Below, one piece after another: positions 17,933 to 40,900 of a stretch of 64,000 nucleotides of DNA. The translations under genes and the position numbers were made by a program. The notes under the pieces are model-generated. The model had not been told where the DNA came from. It made no database searches and was given only the letters and a program-made list of their open reading frames with translations. The DNA is taken from NCBI GenBank assembly GCA_019057865.1, contig JAHLWP010000011.1, positions 6,248 to 70,247 of the forward strand, given 5' to 3'. The first letter of the stretch is position 1. Each line of letters begins with the position of its first letter. The stretch is from Promethearchaeota archaeon. Its GTDB lineage: Archaea > Asgardarchaeota > Lokiarchaeia > Sigyniarchaeales > SOKP01.

Positions 17933-18134
17933 AAAAAAATTTTAACTATTTGTACTCTTCATAGATTGTACCCTCTAATAATGATCTAATTTCATTAATC
18001 TAATTCTCAGCTCTATATGCAAAAAATACAAAAAATCGTAAACTTTTTTAATTTTATGACTTAGAGATCATTATATATATAATCATTAAAAATCAAAATT
18101 AAATCAAAATAAAATTTACAGAACGTGAAAAATA

Positions 18135-19817
18135 ATGGCACAATTAGGTGGAACTCCTATATTAATAATGAGGGAAGGCACAGAGAGAACACGTGGAAGA
18201 GATGCAATGGAAAACAATATTGCTGCTGCTATAGTAATTGCTGAAGCTGTAAGAACATCACTAGGACCACGGGGTATGGACAAAATGCTTGTAGATCAAT
18301 TCGGAGATGTAGTTATTACTAATGATGGTGCAACAATTCTTAAAGAAATTGATGTTCAACATCCAGCCGCTAAAATGATGGTCGAGGTCGCAAAAACTCA
18401 GGATTCTGAGGTAGGTGACGGTACAACTACTAGTGTAGTTCTTGCTGGTGAGCTTTTAAAGCGTGCTAAAAAGCTTTTGGAGCAAAAAATCCATCCAACA
18501 GTTATTACTGAAGGTTTTAGAAAAGCAGCAGAAAAAGCCATCGAAATCTTAGATAATATGTCGATTAAAAGTGGCATTGACGATAAAGAAGGCTTAAAAA
18601 ACGCTGCTATGACATGCATGTCGTCAAAACTTGTATCAGAAAGTAAAGAACAACTAGCCAAGATCTGTATGAATGCTATTGAAGCTATTGCTGAACAAGA
18701 TGAAGATGGTAATTGGGTTGCTGATATTGAAAAGGTTCAAATTCAAAAGAAAGAAGGAGAAGGCATAGATGATACTAGCTTAATTAAGGGCATCATTCTT
18801 GATAAAGAAGTCGTAAGTCCCGGCATGCCAAAAATCGTTAAAGATGCAAAAATTTTACTCTTACAAAGTGCAATAGAAATTGAAAAGACAGAATTTGACG
18901 CTAAACTCCAAATTACCAGCCCTGAACAAATTCAACAATTCCTTGATGAAGAAGAAAAAATGTTAAGGACTATGGTTGATAAGATCGTTAATTCCGGAGC
19001 TAATGTAGTTATCTGTCAGAAAGGAATAGATGATATGGCTCAACATTTCGTATCTAAAGCTGGAATTATGGCTGTGAGAAGAGTGAAAAAATCTGATCTT
19101 GAAAAGTTATCAAAAGCTACTGGTGGTATGATCTATACGAATCTTGATGATATAACTGAAGATAAACTAGGTTGGGCAGGATTAGTAGAAGAACGCAAAA
19201 TCATGAACGATAGCTGGATTTTTATTGAAGAATGTAAAGATCCTAAATCAGTTGTAATTCTAATAAGAGGTGGAAGTGAACTTATCGTCGATGAGGTTGA
19301 AAGAGCCATTCATGATGCTCTCTGCGTAATAAGAGATGTTGTAGAAGATCAAAAACTCGTTGGTGGTGGAGGCGCTCCAGAAATAGAAACTGCAATTCAA
19401 TTGAGAACATATGCCTCTACTCTAGGTGGTCGTGAGCAATTAGCAGTAGAAATTTTTGCTGATAGTCTTGATATTATCCCAAAAACCTTGGCTGAAAATG
19501 CTGGCTTAGATCAAATTGATACCTTAATGAAATTAAGAGCTTCACATCAAAAAGGCAATAAATTTGCGGGTCATGATCTAGATACTGGTAATGTAATTGA
19601 TGACATGGCAAAAGTGGGCGTCGTTGAACCAACTATAGTTAAAGTTCAAGCTATTAAAAGCTCAACTGAAGCAACTTCCATGATCCTCAGGATAGACGAT
19701 GTAATTGCAGCTGCGAAAAGCGCGATGCCTCCTGGTGGAATGCCTCCTGGAGGGATGCCGCCTGGGATGGGCGGTCCTGGAATGGGTGGAATGGGGATGC
19801 CTCCGGGGATGTATTAA
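18135..19817 (+). CDS. ths: Thermosome (group II chaperonin) subunit
   Basis: [32 protein letters not shown]-repeat tail. Confidence 0.97.
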
Positions 19818-20075
19818 GAGTTTAATCATTTTTTTTAATTTATTTTTTCTTTCTATTTTTCTTGTAGTTTTTTAGCAATATTTTGGGCAAGTTCACATCC
19901 AACGATGTCTATTCCGTTAATTGCCCATTTAAGTTGTTCTTTAATTTCTTTTGAGTTTACGGATTTCTTTAATACGGTTAGATCAACCCTCACTTCTGCT
20001 AATAATTTAGCAAAAGATATATAAAATCTATACAAAAAAGTCATGTTTATATTTTTAAGTTAATAATGATCTCAT

Positions 20076-31804: not shown

Positions 31805-31880
31805 TAAAATAAAAAATTCTTTAAAAAACTTATTAGCTAATTACTGGATTTCAATACAATAAGAAAAAATTAAGAAATTA
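31805..31880 (+). repeat. 76-bp direct repeat, copy 2 (orphan HDAC C-terminus)
   Basis: Region from ~31756 encodes SFEYLDFSNNSKELEINKIKNSLKNLLANYWISIQ* versus HDAC TFENIEFLEKSKIEDITKIKNSLKNLLANYWTSIK*. Confidence 0.9.
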
Positions 31881-32291
31881 AACAAGACTAGTTAATTTTT
31901 GGGCGTACTCTTGAACAACAAATAACGTATCCCTAGGTCCCACTTTTGGATTTATATAGCAAATTAATGCTCCTGTTCCCCCGATAGGAATGGGACAAAT
32001 AATAATATGCCCTTTTCCTGTTATATTCGTTCCTATTTTTCTTTCTTCTGTGTTTTCTACGATCATATATTTTATAGCCTGAATAGTAATATTTGTCATT
32101 CCTTTTTGACCAAGCTCTAGTTTAGTATTAAGCAACTCGTTAATCTGATCTAGATCGTTAGAAACATCCCAGTTTTCAGTTTGAGTGAGTAGAATACCAT
32201 CTTTATTTAAAATCGCAATCCCAAAAATATTTTGCTCTTCATTTAATAACTCATCAATAATTACTTCTATTTCAGACATTATAATTACCAA
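31878..32291 (-). CDS. Asgard (Loki-type) profilin
   Basis: IFGIAI--KDG--LTQTENWD, IKYMIVENTEERKIGTNITGKGH, GALICYINP--GPRD match recalled Loki profilin sequences. Confidence 0.88.
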   Translation of the reverse strand: MVIIMSEIEVIIDELLNEEQNIFGIAILNKDGILLTQTENWDVSNDLDQINELLNTKLELGQKGMTNITIQAIKYMIVENTEERKIGTNITGKGHIIICPIPIGGTGALICYINPKVGPRDTLFVVQEYAQKLTSLV

Positions 32292-32383: not shown

Positions 32384-32926
32384 TTGGCATTCAGAATGTG
32401 GAAAAAGGCAATACTTCTTTCATTGCGTGAAAAAAGGATATTCACAGTTTTTGTATTGATATATACTATTTTAATATTTTTATCAAGTTTATTCATAGAA
32501 TTGGGAATTGGGGGTCAATTAGGAGAATCTGCTATATACTATATCTTGATTTTTTTTAGTACTAGTTTAATTCTTTCTCTACTCTATGCTTGGATTTTGG
32601 TGTCTAGAAGAAGACGAGTTTGGGCTACATTCAAATGTATTGGTTATACAAATAAAAATATAATTATATTGGTATCAGGAATTATATTATTTACTACATC
32701 AATGGGATTTTTTATTGTAATTGAAGTTCTATTTCATTATGCTGCTATTGTCGCTTATTTAAATTCAGCAGAAATCAATTTAGATATTACAATTTTAATA
32801 GGATTAGTCCCAGTTATTGTAACTAGTGTATTATTCATATTTGTTCAACTAATTGCCCTTATTGTTGTTTATAGAAAAGTGTTAAAAGTAAGACCAATAA
32901 TTGCATTAAAAAGAGTAGGAGTGTAA
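32384..32926 (+). CDS. FtsX/MacB-like ABC permease (short)
   Basis: 4 TM; RRRVWATFKCIGYTNKNI motif; P-IALK tail. Confidence 0.8.
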   Translation: MAFRMWKKAILLSLREKRIFTVFVLIYTILIFLSSLFIELGIGGQLGESAIYYILIFFSTSLILSLLYAWILVSRRRRVWATFKCIGYTNKNIIILVSGIILFTTSMGFFIVIEVLFHYAAIVAYLNSAEINLDITILIGLVPVIVTSVLFIFVQLIALIVVYRKVLKVRPIIALKRVGV

Positions 32927-32939
32927 GGAGGAAAAAGAA

Positions 32940-33632
32940 ATGGCATTTGCAAAAGATATTATGATTGAGGCAATTGATATAAATAAGGAATATAGACGGG
33001 CAGGAGCCATTATTAGAGCATTAGTAGATATAAATTTAAAAGTAAAATCTGGGGAGTTTGTAATAGTGCAAGGACCAACCGGATGTGGAAAAAGTACTCT
33101 CCTTAATGTATTATCAGGTTTAGATTTACCAGATTCGGGTAGAGTTATTTTTGATGGTGAAAATATAGCACGAGCAACAGAAGATAGATTAAGTAGAATT
33201 CGGCGTCAAAAAATTGGTTTTGTATTCCAAGATTATAACCTTGTTAATTCATTAACAGCAATCGAAAATATAGAAGCATTATTATGGCCGACAGTCTTAA
33301 GTAATAAAGAAATAGAAAATAGATCAATTGCAGCATTAAGAGATGTTAATCTTCTTGAACGTAAAGACCACCATCCTGTTCAACTAAGTGGTGGTGAAAA
33401 ACAAAGGGTTGGATTAGCGAGGGCAATTATTCATAGACCTAGGGTTATCTTAGCAGATGAACCAACTGGAAATTTAGATCCTGAATCAGAAACACATGTA
33501 ATGGAGTTATTAAAGAAAATTAATAAGGACAGAGAAACAACAGTTATAGTAGTTACTCATCGTACGCACTTGAATAAATTTGCTGATAAAGTTATTAAAA
33601 TGGATAAGGGAAGAATTATTAAAATTGAATAA
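32940..33632 (+). CDS. LolD/MacB-like ABC ATPase
   Basis: GPTGCGKST, GFVFQDYNL, LSGGEKQRV, LADEPTGNLD, VVTH. Confidence 0.92.
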   Translation: MAFAKDIMIEAIDINKEYRRAGAIIRALVDINLKVKSGEFVIVQGPTGCGKSTLLNVLSGLDLPDSGRVIFDGENIARATEDRLSRIRRQKIGFVFQDYNLVNSLTAIENIEALLWPTVLSNKEIENRSIAALRDVNLLERKDHHPVQLSGGEKQRVGLARAIIHRPRVILADEPTGNLDPESETHVMELLKKINKDRETTVIVVTHRTHLNKFADKVIKMDKGRIIKIE

Positions 33633-33877: not shown

Positions 33878-34642
33878 GTGTTAAAAATCGGAAAAAAGCG
33901 TGTGATTCTGTCAGGTTGTGCTGGAATGTGTTGTCTCTTACCAATGGCATATATAAGTTTTCGGTTTCTAAATTTAACAGGAGGAGTTACTGGCGGATTA
34001 TTAGAGAATTTTGAGGATGCTTTGAGTTCAATAACAGATCTCATAGGTTTTGGTGGACCCTTTTTAGAAATTGTAGCGGGGGGTTTTATTGGAATGGCTA
34101 TGATTTTTTTATTTCCTATTCATTGGTGTATATATTACCGCCCTGAAGATGTAGGGTTAATTATTGCGGTTACTGTTCCTTGGATTTTATGTTGTGCCAT
34201 CACGAGTGGCTTATTTGCTCATTCTCCTCGAGGTGGTATTAACACTAGTCTTGCTATTGGTTTTGGATATATGATTCCACTATCGATTATTTATCTAGTA
34301 TTAGCTGTTGCATTTCCATTAGGTTCAGCAGTTTTAGATGGGTTATTATTGGGATTGGCAGACTTACCATTTTTACTTGCTATACTTACGTCAATCTTTG
34401 AGGGCTGCTTGGTGGGGGCAGTTTTTGGAGCGTTTATTGGTAGCTTGAAATATAAACCCGGGAAAGCAAAACCAAAGATTAAAAAAGTTAAAGACAAAGA
34501 AGCCGAAATTTCTGAACCTACTTTTGAAAAATTAGGAAAAGCAGAAGAGGCAGAAAGTATTTCACCTTTTTGTACGAACTGCGGAGCTAAACTTACTCCA
34601 TCTGATGATTTTTGCACTAATTGCGGGCAAAAAAGAAAGTAA
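33878..34642 (+). CDS. Membrane protein with C-terminal zinc ribbon
   Basis: 5-6 TM; CTNCG...FCTNCG. Confidence 0.75.
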   Translation: MLKIGKKRVILSGCAGMCCLLPMAYISFRFLNLTGGVTGGLLENFEDALSSITDLIGFGGPFLEIVAGGFIGMAMIFLFPIHWCIYYRPEDVGLIIAVTVPWILCCAITSGLFAHSPRGGINTSLAIGFGYMIPLSIIYLVLAVAFPLGSAVLDGLLLGLADLPFLLAILTSIFEGCLVGAVFGAFIGSLKYKPGKAKPKIKKVKDKEAEISEPTFEKLGKAEEAESISPFCTNCGAKLTPSDDFCTNCGQKRK

Positions 34643-34997
34643 TTAATATCGGACATTTTTTTAATACTTTTTATTTAAATAAATGACCGTTTGAATAAAG
34701 ATTTTGACTTGAATCAAACAAAGATAAAGTAAATATATAAAAAAAAAATCCAATGTATATGTCAGCACCTAAAGGGTTAAGGTTTAGCATGATTTTGTTT
34801 TTTCAATTTTACTCATTTATCTTAATTCTTTAAAAAATAAAAAAAAATATTTATTTAATTTTGGATTCTTATAAATTTTATTCTTCCTCTTCTACTTCTT
34901 CTTCCTTTTCTTCTTTAGCCATTATTTTCAAACTCCTTTTTTAGCAGTTTTATTATTTATCGGTTCTCTCGAAGTGGGGCATACTTACAATAAAAAA

Positions 34998-35201
34998 TTA
35001 AAAAATTTTATTTTCTTTTTTTCTATTCTTGATAGTAAATGTCACCATCCAACCAATAGAAAATACTAATCCAAATAATATTGAGAATTTAAGACCCTCT
35101 AGTAGGTCTCTTTCTAATATTAAATCGTAAATCAACCCCAGAATGATCGCAATTGGAAAAGCTCCTAATCCAACCAAAGAAACTTTTTTATTATGTTTCA
35201 T
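34998..35201 (-). CDS. Small 2-TM membrane protein (candidate immunity protein)
   Basis: 67 aa, two hydrophobic helices, basic tail. Confidence 0.6.
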   Translation of the reverse strand: MKHNKKVSLVGLGAFPIAIILGLIYDLILERDLLEGLKFSILFGLVFSIGWMVTFTIKNRKKENKIF

Positions 35202-35355
35202 TTCCTAACCTTCTTTATTTTATGTTTTATGGTAGAAATTTTTGATTTTACTTTAATTTTTTTGAGTTAGAACAATTCTTTATGGAAATTAACAGAGATT
35301 AATAGTAAATTCTATTTTTATTCATATAATCAATTCTTTAGTATGTATTATTAGC

Positions 35356-35844
35356 CTACATGAAAGGTCTGAAGTCTCTCTTCTTGCCCAATCTGTACAT
35401 TATATACGCTGCGAGGCTATATGAGGGCATAATAGTTAAGATAAATATTATGTCCTTCAATGTTCCTTGACTCTCATAAAAAGGAGCCCATGGGGCCACA
35501 ATAAAAAAATAACTAATGAACATCCAAATTGGCCATCCTAAAGACAGCCCTCCACCTACAATCCATATTCCCTTATAGATATTTCTCTGATATTTTGATT
35601 TTCTGATATAGTAGAGAATGAATAATATTATTGGTGTTATAAAAGTAACCCCCATTGCAACCCATAAATTCATGCTTCCAAGAAAATATTCTAACCAGCT
35701 TATCATCGTTGCCCCGATATATGATCCAATGCTAACCCATAACCAATGTTTTTTAAACGCACTCCAAAAATTTTTGATTTTATCCTTTATTTTCAGAATA
35801 ACCCTCTCTTTAACAAATTTAAGGACACCATTTAAAATATTCAC
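35356..35844 (-). CDS. 4-TM membrane protein (candidate immunity protein; start uncertain)
   Basis: Four hydrophobic helices; abuts or overlaps the stop of the upstream secreted gene. Confidence 0.65.
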   Translation of the reverse strand: MNILNGVLKFVKERVILKIKDKIKNFWSAFKKHWLWVSIGSYIGATMISWLEYFLGSMNLWVAMGVTFITPIILFILYYIRKSKYQRNIYKGIWIVGGGLSLGWPIWMFISYFFIVAPWAPFYESQGTLKDIIFILTIMPSYSLAAYIMYRLGKKRDFRPFM

Positions 35845-37213
35845 AGGCTATAGAACAACTAACATGAAGAACATCAATGTAATTCATTATCCATATGCAT
35901 AGAGGACAAAATACAGGATAGAACAAGCATGCAATAATACATCCAAGTAAGAGAGCTACTCCACATCCTACTTCACAGAAAAAACATCTTAATGGGTCTG
36001 ATGGTGGTGGTGGTGGCGATGGTGGCGGTGTGTAACCCCCGCCATTGTCGGTATATATATCCGCTAAAACTGCAAAACTCTCAAGAATTTGCCAATCGTA
36101 TTTTAAGAGTTGTTCTTTTACTAATTCGGAAAGAGATGCAATTCCTTCTTTTATATCAATGTAAGCATAATAAAGTTCCATTATGTCTAAACCCTCTGAT
36201 TTTTTATAAATTTTTGCCATTTCTTCCGCAATATCTGCTAAAATGTCGTATTGTTGGGATAATATAACAGACATATTGAATTGTACAAACTCCATTGAAG
36301 TTATAGCTTTTTCGTTAACAGGAGTATATTTTAGATTTGTAAATGAACTATTATAAGTCTCTGAATTTAAAGGATCAAGGCGAGTATAAATCGTTAATTT
36401 ATAGTTATTATGGTAAATTAAATACTCTAATTGATAATATTGCAAATAGTAATTTTCTGAAGTGATTTCTGTCGAAATAAAATAAGCAGATTTATTGATT
36501 GTACTTGTAAATTTATTATAACTCCATAATATAGTGTGAGTATGAATAAATTCGTAGACTGTACCATTAAGTTCAAATCTATTGAGAATTGTTATATGGT
36601 CTTCTTGTTGTTCTAATACCTTAGATGTTATGTTTATTGATTCACTCTGACTTGGGCATTCTTGATTTTCATTACAAGATAGACAACCTGAATAATATAA
36701 AAGTAGTGGTTCTATTAGTAATTCAAATTTTGTATCAGCTATTTCATTTACCGTAATATAGTGATAACTTGTCCAGATTGGGTAATTTGCATCAATCCAT
36801 GCCAGTATGCCACCAAGTATATTATATACTTTTGTAAAGCCATACTCAACAAGTATCTCACTTGCTAATTGACTCCTATAGCCAGACTTACAGTAAACAA
36901 TAATCTCAGTATTCTTATATTCTTCAAGTTCATTTATTCTAATTTCAAGTTCATCATGAGGTATTAAAATAGCGTTGTATAGGTGACCCTTTTCATATTC
37001 GCAGGAGGTTCTAACATCTAAAATAACAAGGTTCGGATATTTATTTTCATGTTTTATCATATAATTGGCAGTATCTATAGTAATATTTTGATATATTTGT
37101 TCTTCAGCAGTAACCATTATTATTAAACTGAAAGACGGTAGTAAAAATGCAGTTATAATGAAAAGAGCGATTGTCTTATGACTTATATGTTTTAAACTAT
37201 TTTTTAAATTCAA
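35819..37213 (-). CDS. Secreted rhodanese-domain protein with Pro-rich linker and 10-Cys hydrophobic C-terminal peptide
   Basis: Signal peptide; ILDVRT--EY-KGHL, CKSGYRS, GGILAW rhodanese motifs; GGGYTPPPSPPPPPS linker; Cys-rich tail ending CEYFKWCP. Confidence 0.8.
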   Translation of the reverse strand: MNLKNSLKHISHKTIALFIITAFLLPSFSLIIMVTAEEQIYQNITIDTANYMIKHENKYPNLVILDVRTSCEYEKGHLYNAILIPHDELEIRINELEEYKNTEIIVYCKSGYRSQLASEILVEYGFTKVYNILGGILAWIDANYPIWTSYHYITVNEIADTKFELLIEPLLLYYSGCLSCNENQECPSQSESINITSKVLEQQEDHITILNRFELNGTVYEFIHTHTILWSYNKFTSTINKSAYFISTEITSENYYLQYYQLEYLIYHNNYKLTIYTRLDPLNSETYNSSFTNLKYTPVNEKAITSMEFVQFNMSVILSQQYDILADIAEEMAKIYKKSEGLDIMELYYAYIDIKEGIASLSELVKEQLLKYDWQILESFAVLADIYTDNGGGYTPPPSPPPPPSDPLRCFFCEVGCGVALLLGCIIACLFYPVFCPLCIWIMNYIDVLHVSCSIACEYFKWCP

Positions 37214-37495
37214 AATTTTACCTTTTTATATTTTATTTTTTTTTAAATTGATTGATTTATACAAGTTAAATATAGCAATATGAAAATTTAACTGTTATAT
37301 TTCTGCAATCATATTTATGAGATATTAAAATGATTAATTAATTATCTATTTTTATACACTTATTTTATTTATTATTAGAATTGATTTCCATAAATTTGTA
37401 TTAGATACTTATATTTTAATTCCAAAAAAAAATAGATTAATTATTAAGTTATATTATTATAATAATAATGAAAATTCAAACTATAAGATGATATT

Positions 37496-38527
37496 ATGCC
37501 GAAAGAGGTAAAAGGGGTATTATTTAGCCGTTTGGTTGTTTTGATTTCTATTGTTCTTATCCCTATAATCACATTTTTAATCTATAATTTTGCTGGTTTT
37601 GAATTATGGTTTTCAAATGATCCAGATTTGGAGTTTTTGATTATTAACCTTTTATGTCCCTTAGTTTTTAGTATTTCATGGTTATTTTTCATAATTTTAT
37701 TTGCTAACCGTTTTGCTGAAACTATCGATTCTACAGATAGAGTGGTGGGGGTAATTCCCTTAAGATTGAAATTGTTTTATGGTATAAATGCCGTTTATAT
37801 ACTTCTTATTTTTGTATTTCCGTTAATCACACCTGTTGTTTCAGTTTTAACTTTTGCTTCCTTTGGGTGGCAATTAACAACCATTAGAAAAGAACGATGG
37901 GAGGAGGACACAAAAGTTTCTTTATTAACTAAAATTGTTATGATTCTAGCTTCAATAATCCCTGTCTTCTGTGGAATAGTTATTATACCAGAATATATAA
38001 AGTTATCAATATTTTTATTATGGGATATTTGGATTCCATTGCTTGATCCGATTTACAAAATCTCGTATTGTTTATGTACCGCTCTAGCAATTGGGTCTTT
38101 ATTTATTTTATTTGCTAATTCAGGCATAAGTGAATATGAGCAAATATTTGTAGATACTACAAAAACTAAAAAGATGATGCAAATTAAAATTTTGGAAGTA
38201 GTTTTATTCGTTTTCTTCTTATTTTTAGCATTTTATGAATTTACTGTAATAGATCTATTCTATAATGCGGGATTTATAATTGTTCTTATAGTGTCAATTG
38301 TCAACTACTTTAGTGGGAAACAAAAAACAAGTAAATTTCGAGGTCATGTGATGGGATATATTCTAGCTGCCATTTTTATGGGCTCCAATTTAATATTCAT
38401 TTCAGATACAGAATTCTCAGATTTTATGAAAGTCTCGAGTCTTATCATCTCTGGAATATTGTTTATTTTAGTATTTTTGTATACATTCATTCACCTAGAG
38501 GAACCTGAACTAAAATATAATCACTAA
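37496..38527 (+). CDS. Polytopic membrane protein, unknown function
   Basis: About 9-10 hydrophobic segments. Confidence 0.7.
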   Translation: MPKEVKGVLFSRLVVLISIVLIPIITFLIYNFAGFELWFSNDPDLEFLIINLLCPLVFSISWLFFIILFANRFAETIDSTDRVVGVIPLRLKLFYGINAVYILLIFVFPLITPVVSVLTFASFGWQLTTIRKERWEEDTKVSLLTKIVMILASIIPVFCGIVIIPEYIKLSIFLLWDIWIPLLDPIYKISYCLCTALAIGSLFILFANSGISEYEQIFVDTTKTKKMMQIKILEVVLFVFFLFLAFYEFTVIDLFYNAGFIIVLIVSIVNYFSGKQKTSKFRGHVMGYILAAIFMGSNLIFISDTEFSDFMKVSSLIISGILFILVFLYTFIHLEEPELKYNH

Positions 38528-38842: not shown

Positions 38843-40900
38843 ATGAAAATTATAAATGCTAAATCCTTAATGGTTCTTTCTTTGTTTCTTACCTCAATGA
38901 TTGCAATGCCAGTTATGGTATCTGCTGACGACGATAATAAATTTGACTTTGATCAGTGGGGAGGTAGCGAGGGTTTTGTTACTGGTTTTCAGGGAGGCTT
39001 TGGAAGTATTTTTGGAGGATTAGGTTATGCAGGAAATCTGTTAGGACATGTTTTTCAAATGTTATTTGTTCAAGCATATGAGAGTTTTGATAGTAAAGAG
39101 ATGCTACCAGGCGTCTATGTTTTAAGTGCATTTAATGAAACGAAAACTCCAGTTAAAGTTAATGATTATGGACCTGTTGGTGTTAGTGAATACCATCTAC
39201 TACCGGAGGATTATGCTGCAGGACTTCCACCAGATACGACAGCTTACTGTGAAGTAGTAAAGAGTGGTTCATATGAGTATAATATGACTGTTGGGGCAGG
39301 AGTCACACTTATAATTTGGGATAGCGATAATTCATTCATTAAAGCAGTTAAAAAGTTAATTAGCTTTTTCAAAGAAATAGAAGCGATCGAAGGAGAAGAG
39401 ATTCCTGAGGATCTTATTAGAGAAGGAGTAGAACTAATTGTTTGGTTTTTAATCCATATAAATGATATTATCACTGGCGATGAACTTTTTATATTGAATC
39501 CCATTACCTGGCAGAAATTAGAAATTACTCCAACTACTTTTCAAATAACAAAAACATGGTATCTTTCTGCTACTGAGAATATAATTGATCCTAGTGGTGA
39601 TGATGTTCTTAACGCAATAACATATCCAATAATATACAATCAATTGAATACAAATGCCAGTAACAGAAAAGATATTTATATGCAATGGTTATTGAGAGAT
39701 ACAGAAATTATACCCAATGAAAAATTATACTGGACAGCATTTACCTTCGATTTAATTGAATTATGGATGAAAAATTTTGAAATTCATATTGACATAGCAG
39801 AACTTATTGACATTGGAAGTGGAGAGGGAGGCGATCCTGCGAAAGCTTTTCAGGGATGTGATATTGAATTTTACCTATTTACCCATCATTTAGCTGGTGC
39901 TTTCCTCTATAATGATTTAAATCTTGATCGTGAACTTTCTGTGAACTATACAGATACAACAGTAACAATTGATGGTGAGGATAAAGATATATCATATCCA
40001 GTGAGTTCTGAACTTACTCACAGATTAATTTTAAGATATGTGGACAATTACAATTTTATACCTCCAACTAAGAATGATGATAATACTATTTCATGGGGAT
40101 TACAATTACAAGATGTTAATATCTCTGCAGTTCCTGTTGGCATTGATTTAGATTCCTATCTAGCAGCTCCTCAAGAAAATCTAGATTATGTTCATTTTGG
40201 ATTTACTTTTGATCCAGAAAAGAACGTACGAGGAGCAGATGCCGTAGGGAAAATAAAACTAGACCAATACTTTGCTCCATGGAATAATGATACTGATCCC
40301 TACGCAAATGCTGATATTACAGATTTGGATATGGCAATAATTTATGTGTCAACTATATTACATTTTCACTTAAATGTAGCAACTTCTGGTGTTGTTGAAC
40401 CTCCTGATGCAAACATAGATGATTTTTATGATGATGATCCAAATGATGACGATTATGTTAAAGAGACTCATGAATTAAAGGTTGGAAATTACCTTGGCGG
40501 CTCAGAACCACTGGATTTCGTTGATATTGCCGGACCATATTATGATTATGGTAATGAAACCCTCCCTAGAGGACGTGATAATGCGAGTACTGCTATCATC
40601 CCTCTTGCTGTATGGACTGGTGAAATGGAAAGACATGATACATTTGTACCACCAAGTGAAACAGATGTACAACCTTTTGCTACTGATATTAGGGTTAATA
40701 TAAGTTTTACTGTAGTAGCTTACGCGGTATGTTATCCTGAATTTGAGGATGGCACCGGAATTTGGCACGACCCTACTTTCTCAGTTTTCATGACTTTTCA
40801 AACTCCAGAATTCTGGGCTTTAATTGTATTGATTGCTGGTATTGGATTAGTCGGTGTTGCAACGATATTGATAAAAAGAAGAAAGGACATGAGAATCTAA
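38843..40900 (+). CDS. Secreted acidic cell-surface protein with C-terminal TM anchor
   Basis: Signal peptide, several N-x-S/T sequons, C-terminal TM plus KRRK. Confidence 0.75.
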   Translation: MKIINAKSLMVLSLFLTSMIAMPVMVSADDDNKFDFDQWGGSEGFVTGFQGGFGSIFGGLGYAGNLLGHVFQMLFVQAYESFDSKEMLPGVYVLSAFNETKTPVKVNDYGPVGVSEYHLLPEDYAAGLPPDTTAYCEVVKSGSYEYNMTVGAGVTLIIWDSDNSFIKAVKKLISFFKEIEAIEGEEIPEDLIREGVELIVWFLIHINDIITGDELFILNPITWQKLEITPTTFQITKTWYLSATENIIDPSGDDVLNAITYPIIYNQLNTNASNRKDIYMQWLLRDTEIIPNEKLYWTAFTFDLIELWMKNFEIHIDIAELIDIGSGEGGDPAKAFQGCDIEFYLFTHHLAGAFLYNDLNLDRELSVNYTDTTVTIDGEDKDISYPVSSELTHRLILRYVDNYNFIPPTKNDDNTISWGLQLQDVNISAVPVGIDLDSYLAAPQENLDYVHFGFTFDPEKNVRGADAVGKIKLDQYFAPWNNDTDPYANADITDLDMAIIYVSTILHFHLNVATSGVVEPPDANIDDFYDDDPNDDDYVKETHELKVGNYLGGSEPLDFVDIAGPYYDYGNETLPRGRDNASTAIIPLAVWTGEMERHDTFVPPSETDVQPFATDIRVNISFTVVAYAVCYPEFEDGTGIWHDPTFSVFMTFQTPEFWALIVLIAGIGLVGVATILIKRRKDMRI

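Follow-up and report, generated by a model that had tools for sequence, protein, structure and literature searches.

A strain-variable island of Asgard archaea with a rhodanese-containing precursor, exchangeable cysteine-rich tails and co-varying membrane genes is a candidate toxin/immunity cassette

We analyzed a stretch of 64,000 nucleotides (nt) from a Promethearchaeota archaeon (contig JAHLWP010000011.1, positions 6,248-70,247, forward strand), which we call the window, and within it an island of three genes, about 2.7 kb long (window positions 34640..37335), that is absent from related strains. All three genes are on the minus strand. The longest (35819..37213, TTG start) encodes a predicted precursor of 464 amino acids (aa) with a signal peptide followed by a rhodanese domain, a conserved body, a linker, and a cysteine-rich hydrophobic tail at the C-terminus. 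Downstream of it are a gene for a 162-aa protein with four transmembrane (TM) segments (35356..35844) and, separated from this by 155 nt, a gene for a 67-aa protein with two hydrophobic segments (34998..35201). A first-pass annotation had read this architecture, including a middle region of about 240 aa, a 55-aa tail with 10 Cys, and adjacent 4-TM and 2-TM genes, from the nucleotide sequence; the open reading frames (ORFs), the match to PF00581, and hydropathy confirm it. Comparison with related loci suggests that the island is an accessory antagonism cassette in which the tail would act on membranes and the 4-TM protein would protect the producer.

The N-terminus of the precursor has a lysine-rich stretch followed by a strongly hydrophobic segment (Kyte-Doolittle hydropathy, KD, with a mean of up to 2.49). 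Residues ~1-36 (37106..37213) are predicted from hydropathy to form a Sec-type signal segment ending in ...VTA/EE, where cleavage probably occurs, and the ...AEE motif at the end of the signal is kept in alignments A1 and A5 of the family. None of the 46 full-length family members has a twin-arginine motif, suggesting that Sec is the likely export route. The rhodanese domain (residues 60-141, 36791..37036) matches PF00581 with an E value of 1.2e-17 and 64.7 bits against a cut-off of 22.2, and this is the sole Pfam match of the whole precursor at E<=1. Its catalytic Cys108 is within the loop YCKSGYRS, which fits CxxGxR(S/T). The loop Cys is retained in 45 of the 46 readable loops of the family, suggesting that the enzyme matters where it is present.

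The conserved body (residues 150-385, 36059..36766, profile A4) is about 240 aa long and contains a beta-rich portion followed by a helical pre-tail portion that ends at the junction residue Asp385. In 70 of 74 members an Asp precedes the linker or tail. The body has no sequence match in Pfam, NCBIfam, or the PDB, and profiles of the body, the tail, and the 4-TM protein found nothing significant among PDB sequences. The top row for the A4 body profile was the beta-pore-forming toxin monalysin, at a non-significant E of 1 and over body positions 69-163. A Gly/Pro-rich linker (residues 386-409, 35987..36058; GGGYTPPPSPPPPPS) connects the body to the tail. This linker is found in the Asgard versions of the protein and is missing from the Bathyarchaeota versions with the same class of tail, which we call class A.

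The class-A tail of the window (35822..35986) is 55 aa long, contains 10 Cys that are invariant within its class, and is a candidate divergent halocin C8-like module. Its first half is as hydrophobic as a TM segment (KD 2.1-2.4) and its second half is amphipathic (KD 0.4-0.8, hydrophobic moment 0.99). In a six-frame scan of the 4.26-Mb genome to which the window belongs, this was the only ORF end with 10 Cys in the last 60 residues together with high hydrophobicity, and a similarity search of the same genome revealed no second copy. Thus, the tail is not a general sorting signal. The CTERM sorting models (PGF-CTERM and kin) did not match it either.

Alignment of the 4-TM protein with its homologues placed four hydrophobic segments in it. 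The protein, which ends in ...GKKRDFRPFM, is unnamed and matches nothing in Pfam. With the GTG start its gene overlaps the precursor gene by 26 nt; this start is uncertain, most homologues being 144-149 aa long. We consider the 4-TM gene a candidate for the cognate immunity gene of the tail. The 67-aa gene, which is present in a single copy in its own genome, is a candidate orphan immunity gene.

Three DNA runs (X5, X6, and X7), belonging to three other studies, contain contigs with an empty site at this position. The X6 join runs from 34614 to 37344, with a side of 255 and 55 other letters between, and one 8,908-nt contig lies on both flanks. X7 has joins from 34633 to 37361 and from 34639 to 37335, and X5 from 34634 to 37335. 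These empty sites skip the whole three-gene block in related strains, suggesting that the block is one accessory unit. Variation was also observed inside the precursor gene. X6 contigs that match the body leave the window at 36065, which is codon 383-384 at the body/tail junction, and the consensus of the loose ends at this position encodes a different linker, of the type seen in P0038 and L094. The X6 bins at 35381-36064 had no contig cover and were not used as evidence. One X5 contig joins 34744 to 35307 across the 67-aa gene, skipping 562 nt, and may represent an island variant that lacks this gene; with a side of only 37 letters and 5 letters between, it is too weak to count. The run labels give the habitat as anoxic sediment. 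There was no RNA run among the sequencing runs that contain the stretch.

The protein collection contained 32 homologues of the precursor, with no name beyond 'rhodanese-related sulfurtransferase', and a metagenome scan contributed 80 further loci. Full-length relatives were found in metagenome-assembled genomes (MAGs) of Promethearchaeota and Bathyarchaeota; viral contigs contained no relatives. The body is patchily distributed, occurring in 19 of 400 Asgard species genomes and 12 of 85 genera. In alignment A1 (23 sequences) the bodies are 44-70% identical to that of the window protein and the tails fall into discrete, mutually unalignable classes. We counted about 20 such classes among 51 genes. 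The first-pass annotation had asked whether the tails on a shared carrier are hypervariable, and they are indeed variable in this way rather than invariant.

Class A comprises five tails, from the window, from L007, and from three Bathyarchaeota loci. All 10 Cys are invariant among them, in the pattern C-x2-C-x3-C-x7-C-x3-C-x6/7-C-x2-C-x12/13-C-x3-C-x5-C, and the tails are otherwise 31-39% identical. A profile made from the five had 18 matches among 1.84 billion representatives. All 18 of these carry the same body, some of them without the rhodanese domain. Thus, the class-A tail is exclusive to this family as far as HMMER can see. We also considered whether the tail is common to other delivery systems and rejected this on the same 18 of 18 matches.

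The C-terminal modules are polymorphic on a conserved N-terminal region and do not follow the phylogeny of the body. A tree built from the last 150 residues of the body requires 30 switches of tail class, where the minimum possible is 19 and shuffled labels gave 32-39 switches (mean 37). L011 and L096 have tails that are 63% identical on bodies that are 52% identical; for L008 and L088 these values are 48% and 80%. The ratio of nonsynonymous to synonymous substitution rates (dN/dS, NG86) was higher in the tail than in the body in 8 of 8 valid pairs, for instance 0.72 versus 0.27 for the window and L007. By this measure the tail appears to evolve faster than the body. In addition, 5'-truncated orphan cassettes make up 15 of the 62 complete tailed ORFs; they retain the tail and, of the body, nothing but the helical pre-tail portion, although a few of them may be assembly splits.

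Some family members have additional or doubled modules. In L018 (5947-7776) and L021 (5911-7722) a stretch of about 170 aa with a weak match to F5/8 type C (F5_F8_type_C) comes after the Cys module, L024 (6458-7768) has a weak CBM_4_9-like domain before the Cys module, and L020 (6019-7911) has two Cys modules in tandem. These variants with an extra beta-sandwich-like domain or a doubled module suggest that the Cys module is extracellular or forms a hairpin, rather than being a single-pass anchor.

Homologues of the 4-TM gene are located directly downstream of tailed genes at other loci. To quantify this linkage we used 67 distinct Cys-tailed genes, 57 of which had at least 500 nt of downstream sequence, and scored any small gene with at least two TM segments that lay on the same strand and started between -80 and +300 nt downstream. 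Such a gene was found directly downstream of 51 of the 57 tailed genes, belonging to the 4-TM family in 22 cases and to other types in 29; the remaining 6 had none. As a control, among the other genes of these loci that encode at least 200 aa, 26 of 161 were followed by a small multi-TM gene. Thus, the TM genes are linked to the tailed genes in other genomes also.

The type of the downstream gene varied with the tail. The partial Mantel correlation between tail and downstream gene, given the body, was 0.77 (0 of 2000 permutations as high), and that between body and downstream gene, given the tail, was 0.18. Among 241 pairs with similar bodies and different tails the mean downstream similarity was 0.068, against a background of 0.056, and among 18 pairs with matching tails it was 0.60. 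For the agreement between tail class and downstream class the adjusted Rand index was 0.54, a value that none of 5000 permutations reached. The co-variation that the first-pass annotation had proposed as a check is therefore borne out. Its proposal that both membrane genes confer immunity to the adjacent tail is supported in part: the 4-TM gene is linked to the tail and co-varies with it, whereas the 67-aa gene is of the type that partners another class of tail.

This other class is class C. The 67-aa protein matches the product of L094 3210-3407 (phmmer, E 3e-21), a gene located directly after a class-C-tailed gene whose product ends in ...CEWLCCQV. The same order, a class-C-tailed gene and then a homologue of the 67-aa gene, was observed in L172. 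Thus, the 2-TM gene of the window is of the type that partners a class of tail absent from the window. L094 also has a lone 4-TM gene 2 kb further on. The two layouts mirror each other: beside its class-A gene the window has a 4-TM gene and, as an orphan, the 2-TM gene, and in L094 the class-C gene is accompanied by the homologous 2-TM gene and the 4-TM gene is the orphan.

Orphan C-terminal and partner modules and stand-alone candidate immunity genes are present more widely. The 4-TM family occurs in 65 of 400 Asgard genomes, 12 of which also contain the body and 53 of which have the 4-TM family only, counts that come from a comparison of two lists and are subject to MAG incompleteness. The 4-TM genes are often in tandem; L184-L186 contain tandem 4-TM pairs with no tailed gene nearby, and the island in L183 has the order tail remnant, 2-TM, 4-TM, 4-TM, 2-TM, 4-TM. 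Fusions of the 4-TM module with a winged-helix domain (DUF7347/HTH_20; DUF7347 E 3e-11 to 4e-7) are encoded at three loci of Bathyarchaeota, beside family genes and on the opposite, minus strand (L018 8155-8904, L021 7807-8511, L022 2918-3631). These fusions are predicted to be membrane-tethered regulators, and one Asgard family has longer open frames that contain this module.

The first-pass annotation had compared the tail with halocin C8 and with saposin-like proteins. The precursor does have the general features of the former, namely a hydrophobic C-terminal module with about 10 conserved Cys on a precursor that is predicted to be secreted. We used the curated model of the halocin C8 domain, TIGR04449 (halocin_C8_dom), which has a cut-off of 24 bits. 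None of the 400 Asgard genomes scored above it. TIGR04449 was listed for 10 of the 66 family tails, always near the full length of the model, and the tail of one orphan cassette (L123:2941-3180) passes the cut-off with 25.1 bits and an E of 2.6e-5. The tail of L158 reached 18.5 bits and a Bathyarchaeota class-A tail only 8.9-9.5 bits. Comparison by hhalign of class A (A2) with the TIGR04449-passing class (A7) gave an end-to-end alignment with an E of 1.8e-4, and the two classes share a D-D-W-x-x-C-x2-C start and a C-x5-C-P end. We also ran an iterative profile search that started from the passing class, with filters off and 2,960 composition-matched shuffles as decoys. The profile took in the Bathyarchaeota class-A tails first, after which the window tail scored 10.1 bits before its own inclusion and the top decoy 6.2. 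An earlier iterative run, in which three body residues were kept at the junction, gave the window tail 22.6 bits; this run was biased and was not used as evidence. The TIGR04449-positive orphan tail had only two close relatives in the protein collection and no named halocin among them. Taken together, there is moderate evidence that the window tail is a shortened, divergent halocin C8-like domain: a sister class passes the curated model, and the window tail, which the model does not match, is linked to that class through profile comparisons of moderate strength. The likeness to saposins found no support. SapB_1 and SapB_2 had no match in the whole protein or, at E<=10, in 13 tails.

The precursor resembles that of halocin C8, ProC8, in that the C-terminal module is hydrophobic, about 55-90 aa long, and contains about 10 Cys. 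ProC8 is reported to be exported by the twin-arginine translocation (Tat) system and to contain the immunity protein HalI as its N-terminal part (bioRxiv 10.64898/2026.07.27.741052). By contrast, the Asgard precursor is of the Sec type, with no Tat signal, and has an N-terminal rhodanese domain and an unnamed body instead of HalI; the corresponding domain, Hac8_like_N (PF22862), is absent from it. The presumed immunity function would reside in a separate downstream TM gene, and the tails of Asgard archaea and Bathyarchaeia are swapped as cassettes.

A conserved carrier, a swappable tail, a cognate membrane protein, orphan modules, and a variable island together form the pattern of a polymorphic toxin/immunity system. 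Based on this pattern, we think that the block at 34640-37335 is probably, though far from certainly, an accessory antagonism cassette of the polymorphic-toxin kind. The toxin/immunity interpretation is partly supported by these comparisons. The first-pass annotation had mentioned a polymorphic toxin on a rhodanese-containing carrier; the discrete tails, the co-varying TM genes, and the orphan modules agree with this, and what has to be given up is the 67-aa gene as a partner of this tail. In the mechanism that we propose, Sec would export the 464-aa protein, with the rhodanese domain and body serving as a carrier or pro-region and the exchangeable Cys-rich module, a divergent halocin C8-like domain, as the membrane-active part. 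The 4-TM protein would neutralize the cognate tail in the membrane of the producer, by analogy with the immunity proteins of pore-forming colicins, and the 67-aa protein would provide orphan immunity against class-C tails from neighbors. New tail and immunity cassettes could be gained by recombination at the helical pre-tail region that ends in the near-invariant Asp. The intact ecto-rhodanese may help to mature the Cys-rich tail, through cross-linking driven by sulfane sulfur or through oxidative folding in the anoxic habitat. In this scheme we infer toxicity, immunity, direct binding between the tail and the 4-TM protein, proteolytic release, and the role of the rhodanese domain.

Several known systems share parts of this arrangement. 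In the CdiA-CT/CdiI system of contact-dependent inhibition (CDI) and in Rhs-CT/RhsI there is likewise a conserved N-terminal part, a polymorphic C-terminal part, and a small cognate gene directly downstream. Orphan modules of cdiA-CT/cdiI have been reported for CDI and Rhs systems (PMC3150448), and our 5'-truncated tail and partner modules are similar to them in keeping a stretch of the conserved region and in being exchanged between lineages. Unlike CDI and Rhs systems, the present family has archaeal hosts and no two-partner, type VI secretion, or Rhs delivery apparatus, its variable part is a short Cys-rich membrane module rather than an enzyme domain, and its class-A tail is on no other carrier among the 1.84 billion representatives. 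The likeness to pore-forming colicins is a working analogy. These toxins are countered by immunity proteins of the cytoplasmic membrane (PMC9558359), and here too a C-terminal hydrophobic helical element appears to be paired with an adjacent small multi-pass membrane protein. There is no sequence relationship that we could find, and colicin pore domains are bundles of 10 helices and ~177 residues without Cys scaffolds (PMC2585860). For the rhodanese domain the closest parallel is PspE. PMC5403849, citing Chng 2012, states that this periplasmic rhodanese, acting with DsbC, can take the place of DsbA/DsbB in forming disulfides, and it is because of this ability that we consider a tail-maturing role for the rhodanese domain. 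Like PspE, it is predicted to be extracytoplasmic and has a single catalytic Cys, and the NCBIfam PspE models match it with an E of 5.6e-12. Unlike PspE, it is part of a fusion with a long carrier and a Cys-rich tail, and it scores 45.8 bits where the equivalog cut-off is 102.

A number of observations weigh against a toxin/immunity cassette. The island contains no protease, dedicated exporter, or lysis gene, and a Sec-exported protein with a helix of TM-grade hydrophobicity (KD 2.1-2.4) may stay anchored in the membrane of the producer; the tail is possibly a plain helical-hairpin anchor. Because the tail and the downstream gene are adjacent, they could co-vary by moving in one recombination tract without functional coupling, and near-duplicate loci from the same or similar habitats inflate the counts of matching pairs. 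The dN/dS values never exceeded 1 and dS is partly saturated. The link to halocins also has gaps: TIGR04449 gave no match to the window tail (E<=10), to the whole protein (E<=1), or to its own genome, the hhalign probability for class A against the passing class was only 48.8%, and iterative runs with thresholds of 18-20 bits and filters on stalled at four sequences. The rhodanese domain is absent from 14 of 70 5'-complete members of at least 230 aa, and stable disulfides are doubtful in reducing sediment. Finally, some loci have a 4-TM module with a DNA-binding domain attached to it, and the module also occurs beside members whose Cys module precedes a further beta-sandwich-like domain. For these two reasons the 4-TM module may sense or regulate rather than protect, or may do both.

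We wished to weigh three other explanations against these data. The system could serve self/non-self recognition or partner pairing, for instance during cell-cell contact or membrane exchange, with a membrane-held ecto-enzyme whose variable hairpin pairs with a matching TM protein so that the alleles mark kin. Such a role would suit a tail hydrophobic enough to remain in the producer membrane after Sec export, the lack of release machinery in the island, the co-variation of tail and partner, and the fusion of the 4-TM module to a DNA-binding domain in some loci, which fits signaling. What it has difficulty explaining is that 53 of the 65 Asgard genomes with the 4-TM family have no tailed gene and that partner genes occur in tandem arrays and orphan islands; such orphan partners are usual for immunity genes and hard to reconcile with a two-part identity marker. 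In addition, one sister class of tails belongs to the halocin C8 domain family. On balance we regard recognition as unlikely. The tail could alternatively be an ordinary C-terminal membrane anchor or sorting signal with unrelated TM genes beside it, and a hydrophobic C-terminal segment behind a Pro-rich linker does resemble the anchors of archaeal surface proteins. This is very improbable, being largely refuted by the linkage (51 of 57 versus 26 of 161 controls) and co-variation counts; moreover, the tail is unique in its own genome and unmatched by the CTERM sorting models, its 10 Cys are invariant across phyla, and some members have a further domain after the Cys module.

A sulfur or metal redox module is the other explanation. 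Here the ecto-rhodanese would take up sulfane sulfur, and the Cys-rich segment and the TM protein would relay sulfur or electrons or bind metal or an Fe-S cluster. The intact rhodanese loop (45 of 46 readable loops), the 10 invariant tail Cys with their CxxC and CxxxC spacings and terminal C-P, and the anoxic sediment habitat are all consistent with this. A housekeeping relay, however, should not have about 20 unrelated tail classes with differing numbers of Cys, nor would orphan cassettes and empty-site alleles within a population be expected of it. The family is found in only 19 of 400 Asgard genomes, 14 of 70 members have no rhodanese domain, and no redox or transport genes are conserved near the homologues. 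We therefore consider a redox module quite improbable.

Asgard archaea are the closest prokaryotic relatives of eukaryotes. To our knowledge, almost nothing is known of competition or mutual recognition among them. If the toxin/immunity reading is correct, the island provides a concrete toxin/immunity candidate in Asgard archaea and Bathyarchaeia, and the approximately 20 tail classes with their matched partners would form a ready set of specificity pairs for experiments. Current annotation names the family only as rhodanese, and it escapes the curated halocin C8 model in all 400 of the Asgard genomes. The halocin C8 module, known from Tat-exported precursors of haloarchaea, would then also occur in an architecture with Sec export, exchange of cassettes, and membrane immunity encoded by separate genes. 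In these lineages the combination of a halocin C8-type module with a polymorphic-toxin architecture would be new, as would the carrier, the export route, and the immunity arrangement. Our literature searches found no publication that links halocin with rhodanese, and no published account of the family or of a halocin C8 module in Asgard archaea or Bathyarchaeota; the survey by Makarova et al. 2019 may mention the family.

The locus also raises a chemical question, namely the role of a seemingly active extracellular rhodanese beside a 10-Cys peptide in an anoxic habitat. A bolder version of the toxin/immunity reading, which we hold to be rather unlikely, is that Asgard archaea and Bathyarchaeia share a so far unrecognized cassette-swapping antagonism system in which the ecto-rhodanese of the precursor, being catalytically active, employs sulfane sulfur for cross-linking or loading a halocin-like, Cys-rich membrane toxin, and in which small membrane proteins, some of them fused to DNA-binding domains, both protect against and sense incoming tails. 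If so, a weapon stapled by disulfides or polysulfides would be workable in anoxic, sulfidic sediment.

Nearest to the island on one side is a 254-aa multi-TM protein with a C-terminal zinc ribbon (33878-34642, plus strand; PF13240, E 1e-6), and the left edge of the empty site is in its last codons. Further out, at 32384-33632 (plus strand), come an FtsX-like permease (PF02687, E 1.4e-5) and then an ABC ATPase-like ORF. We saw no such pair beside the homologues in L007-L026; L185 has an ABC pair beside tandem 4-TM genes. A 137-aa ORF at 31878-32291 (minus strand) has weak matches to Roadblock/LC7 (E 0.15) and dCache (E 0.029). On the other side are a 343-aa protein with many TM segments (37496-38527) and a 685-aa secreted protein with a C-terminal TM segment (38843-40900), both on the plus strand and with no Pfam match. 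No Rfam family was found anywhere in the window, and a scan for promoters and terminators gave results at the level of shuffled sequence, the models being bacterial and not applicable to archaea. The G+C content rises to 0.363 at window positions 18001-20000, compared with about 0.28 elsewhere.

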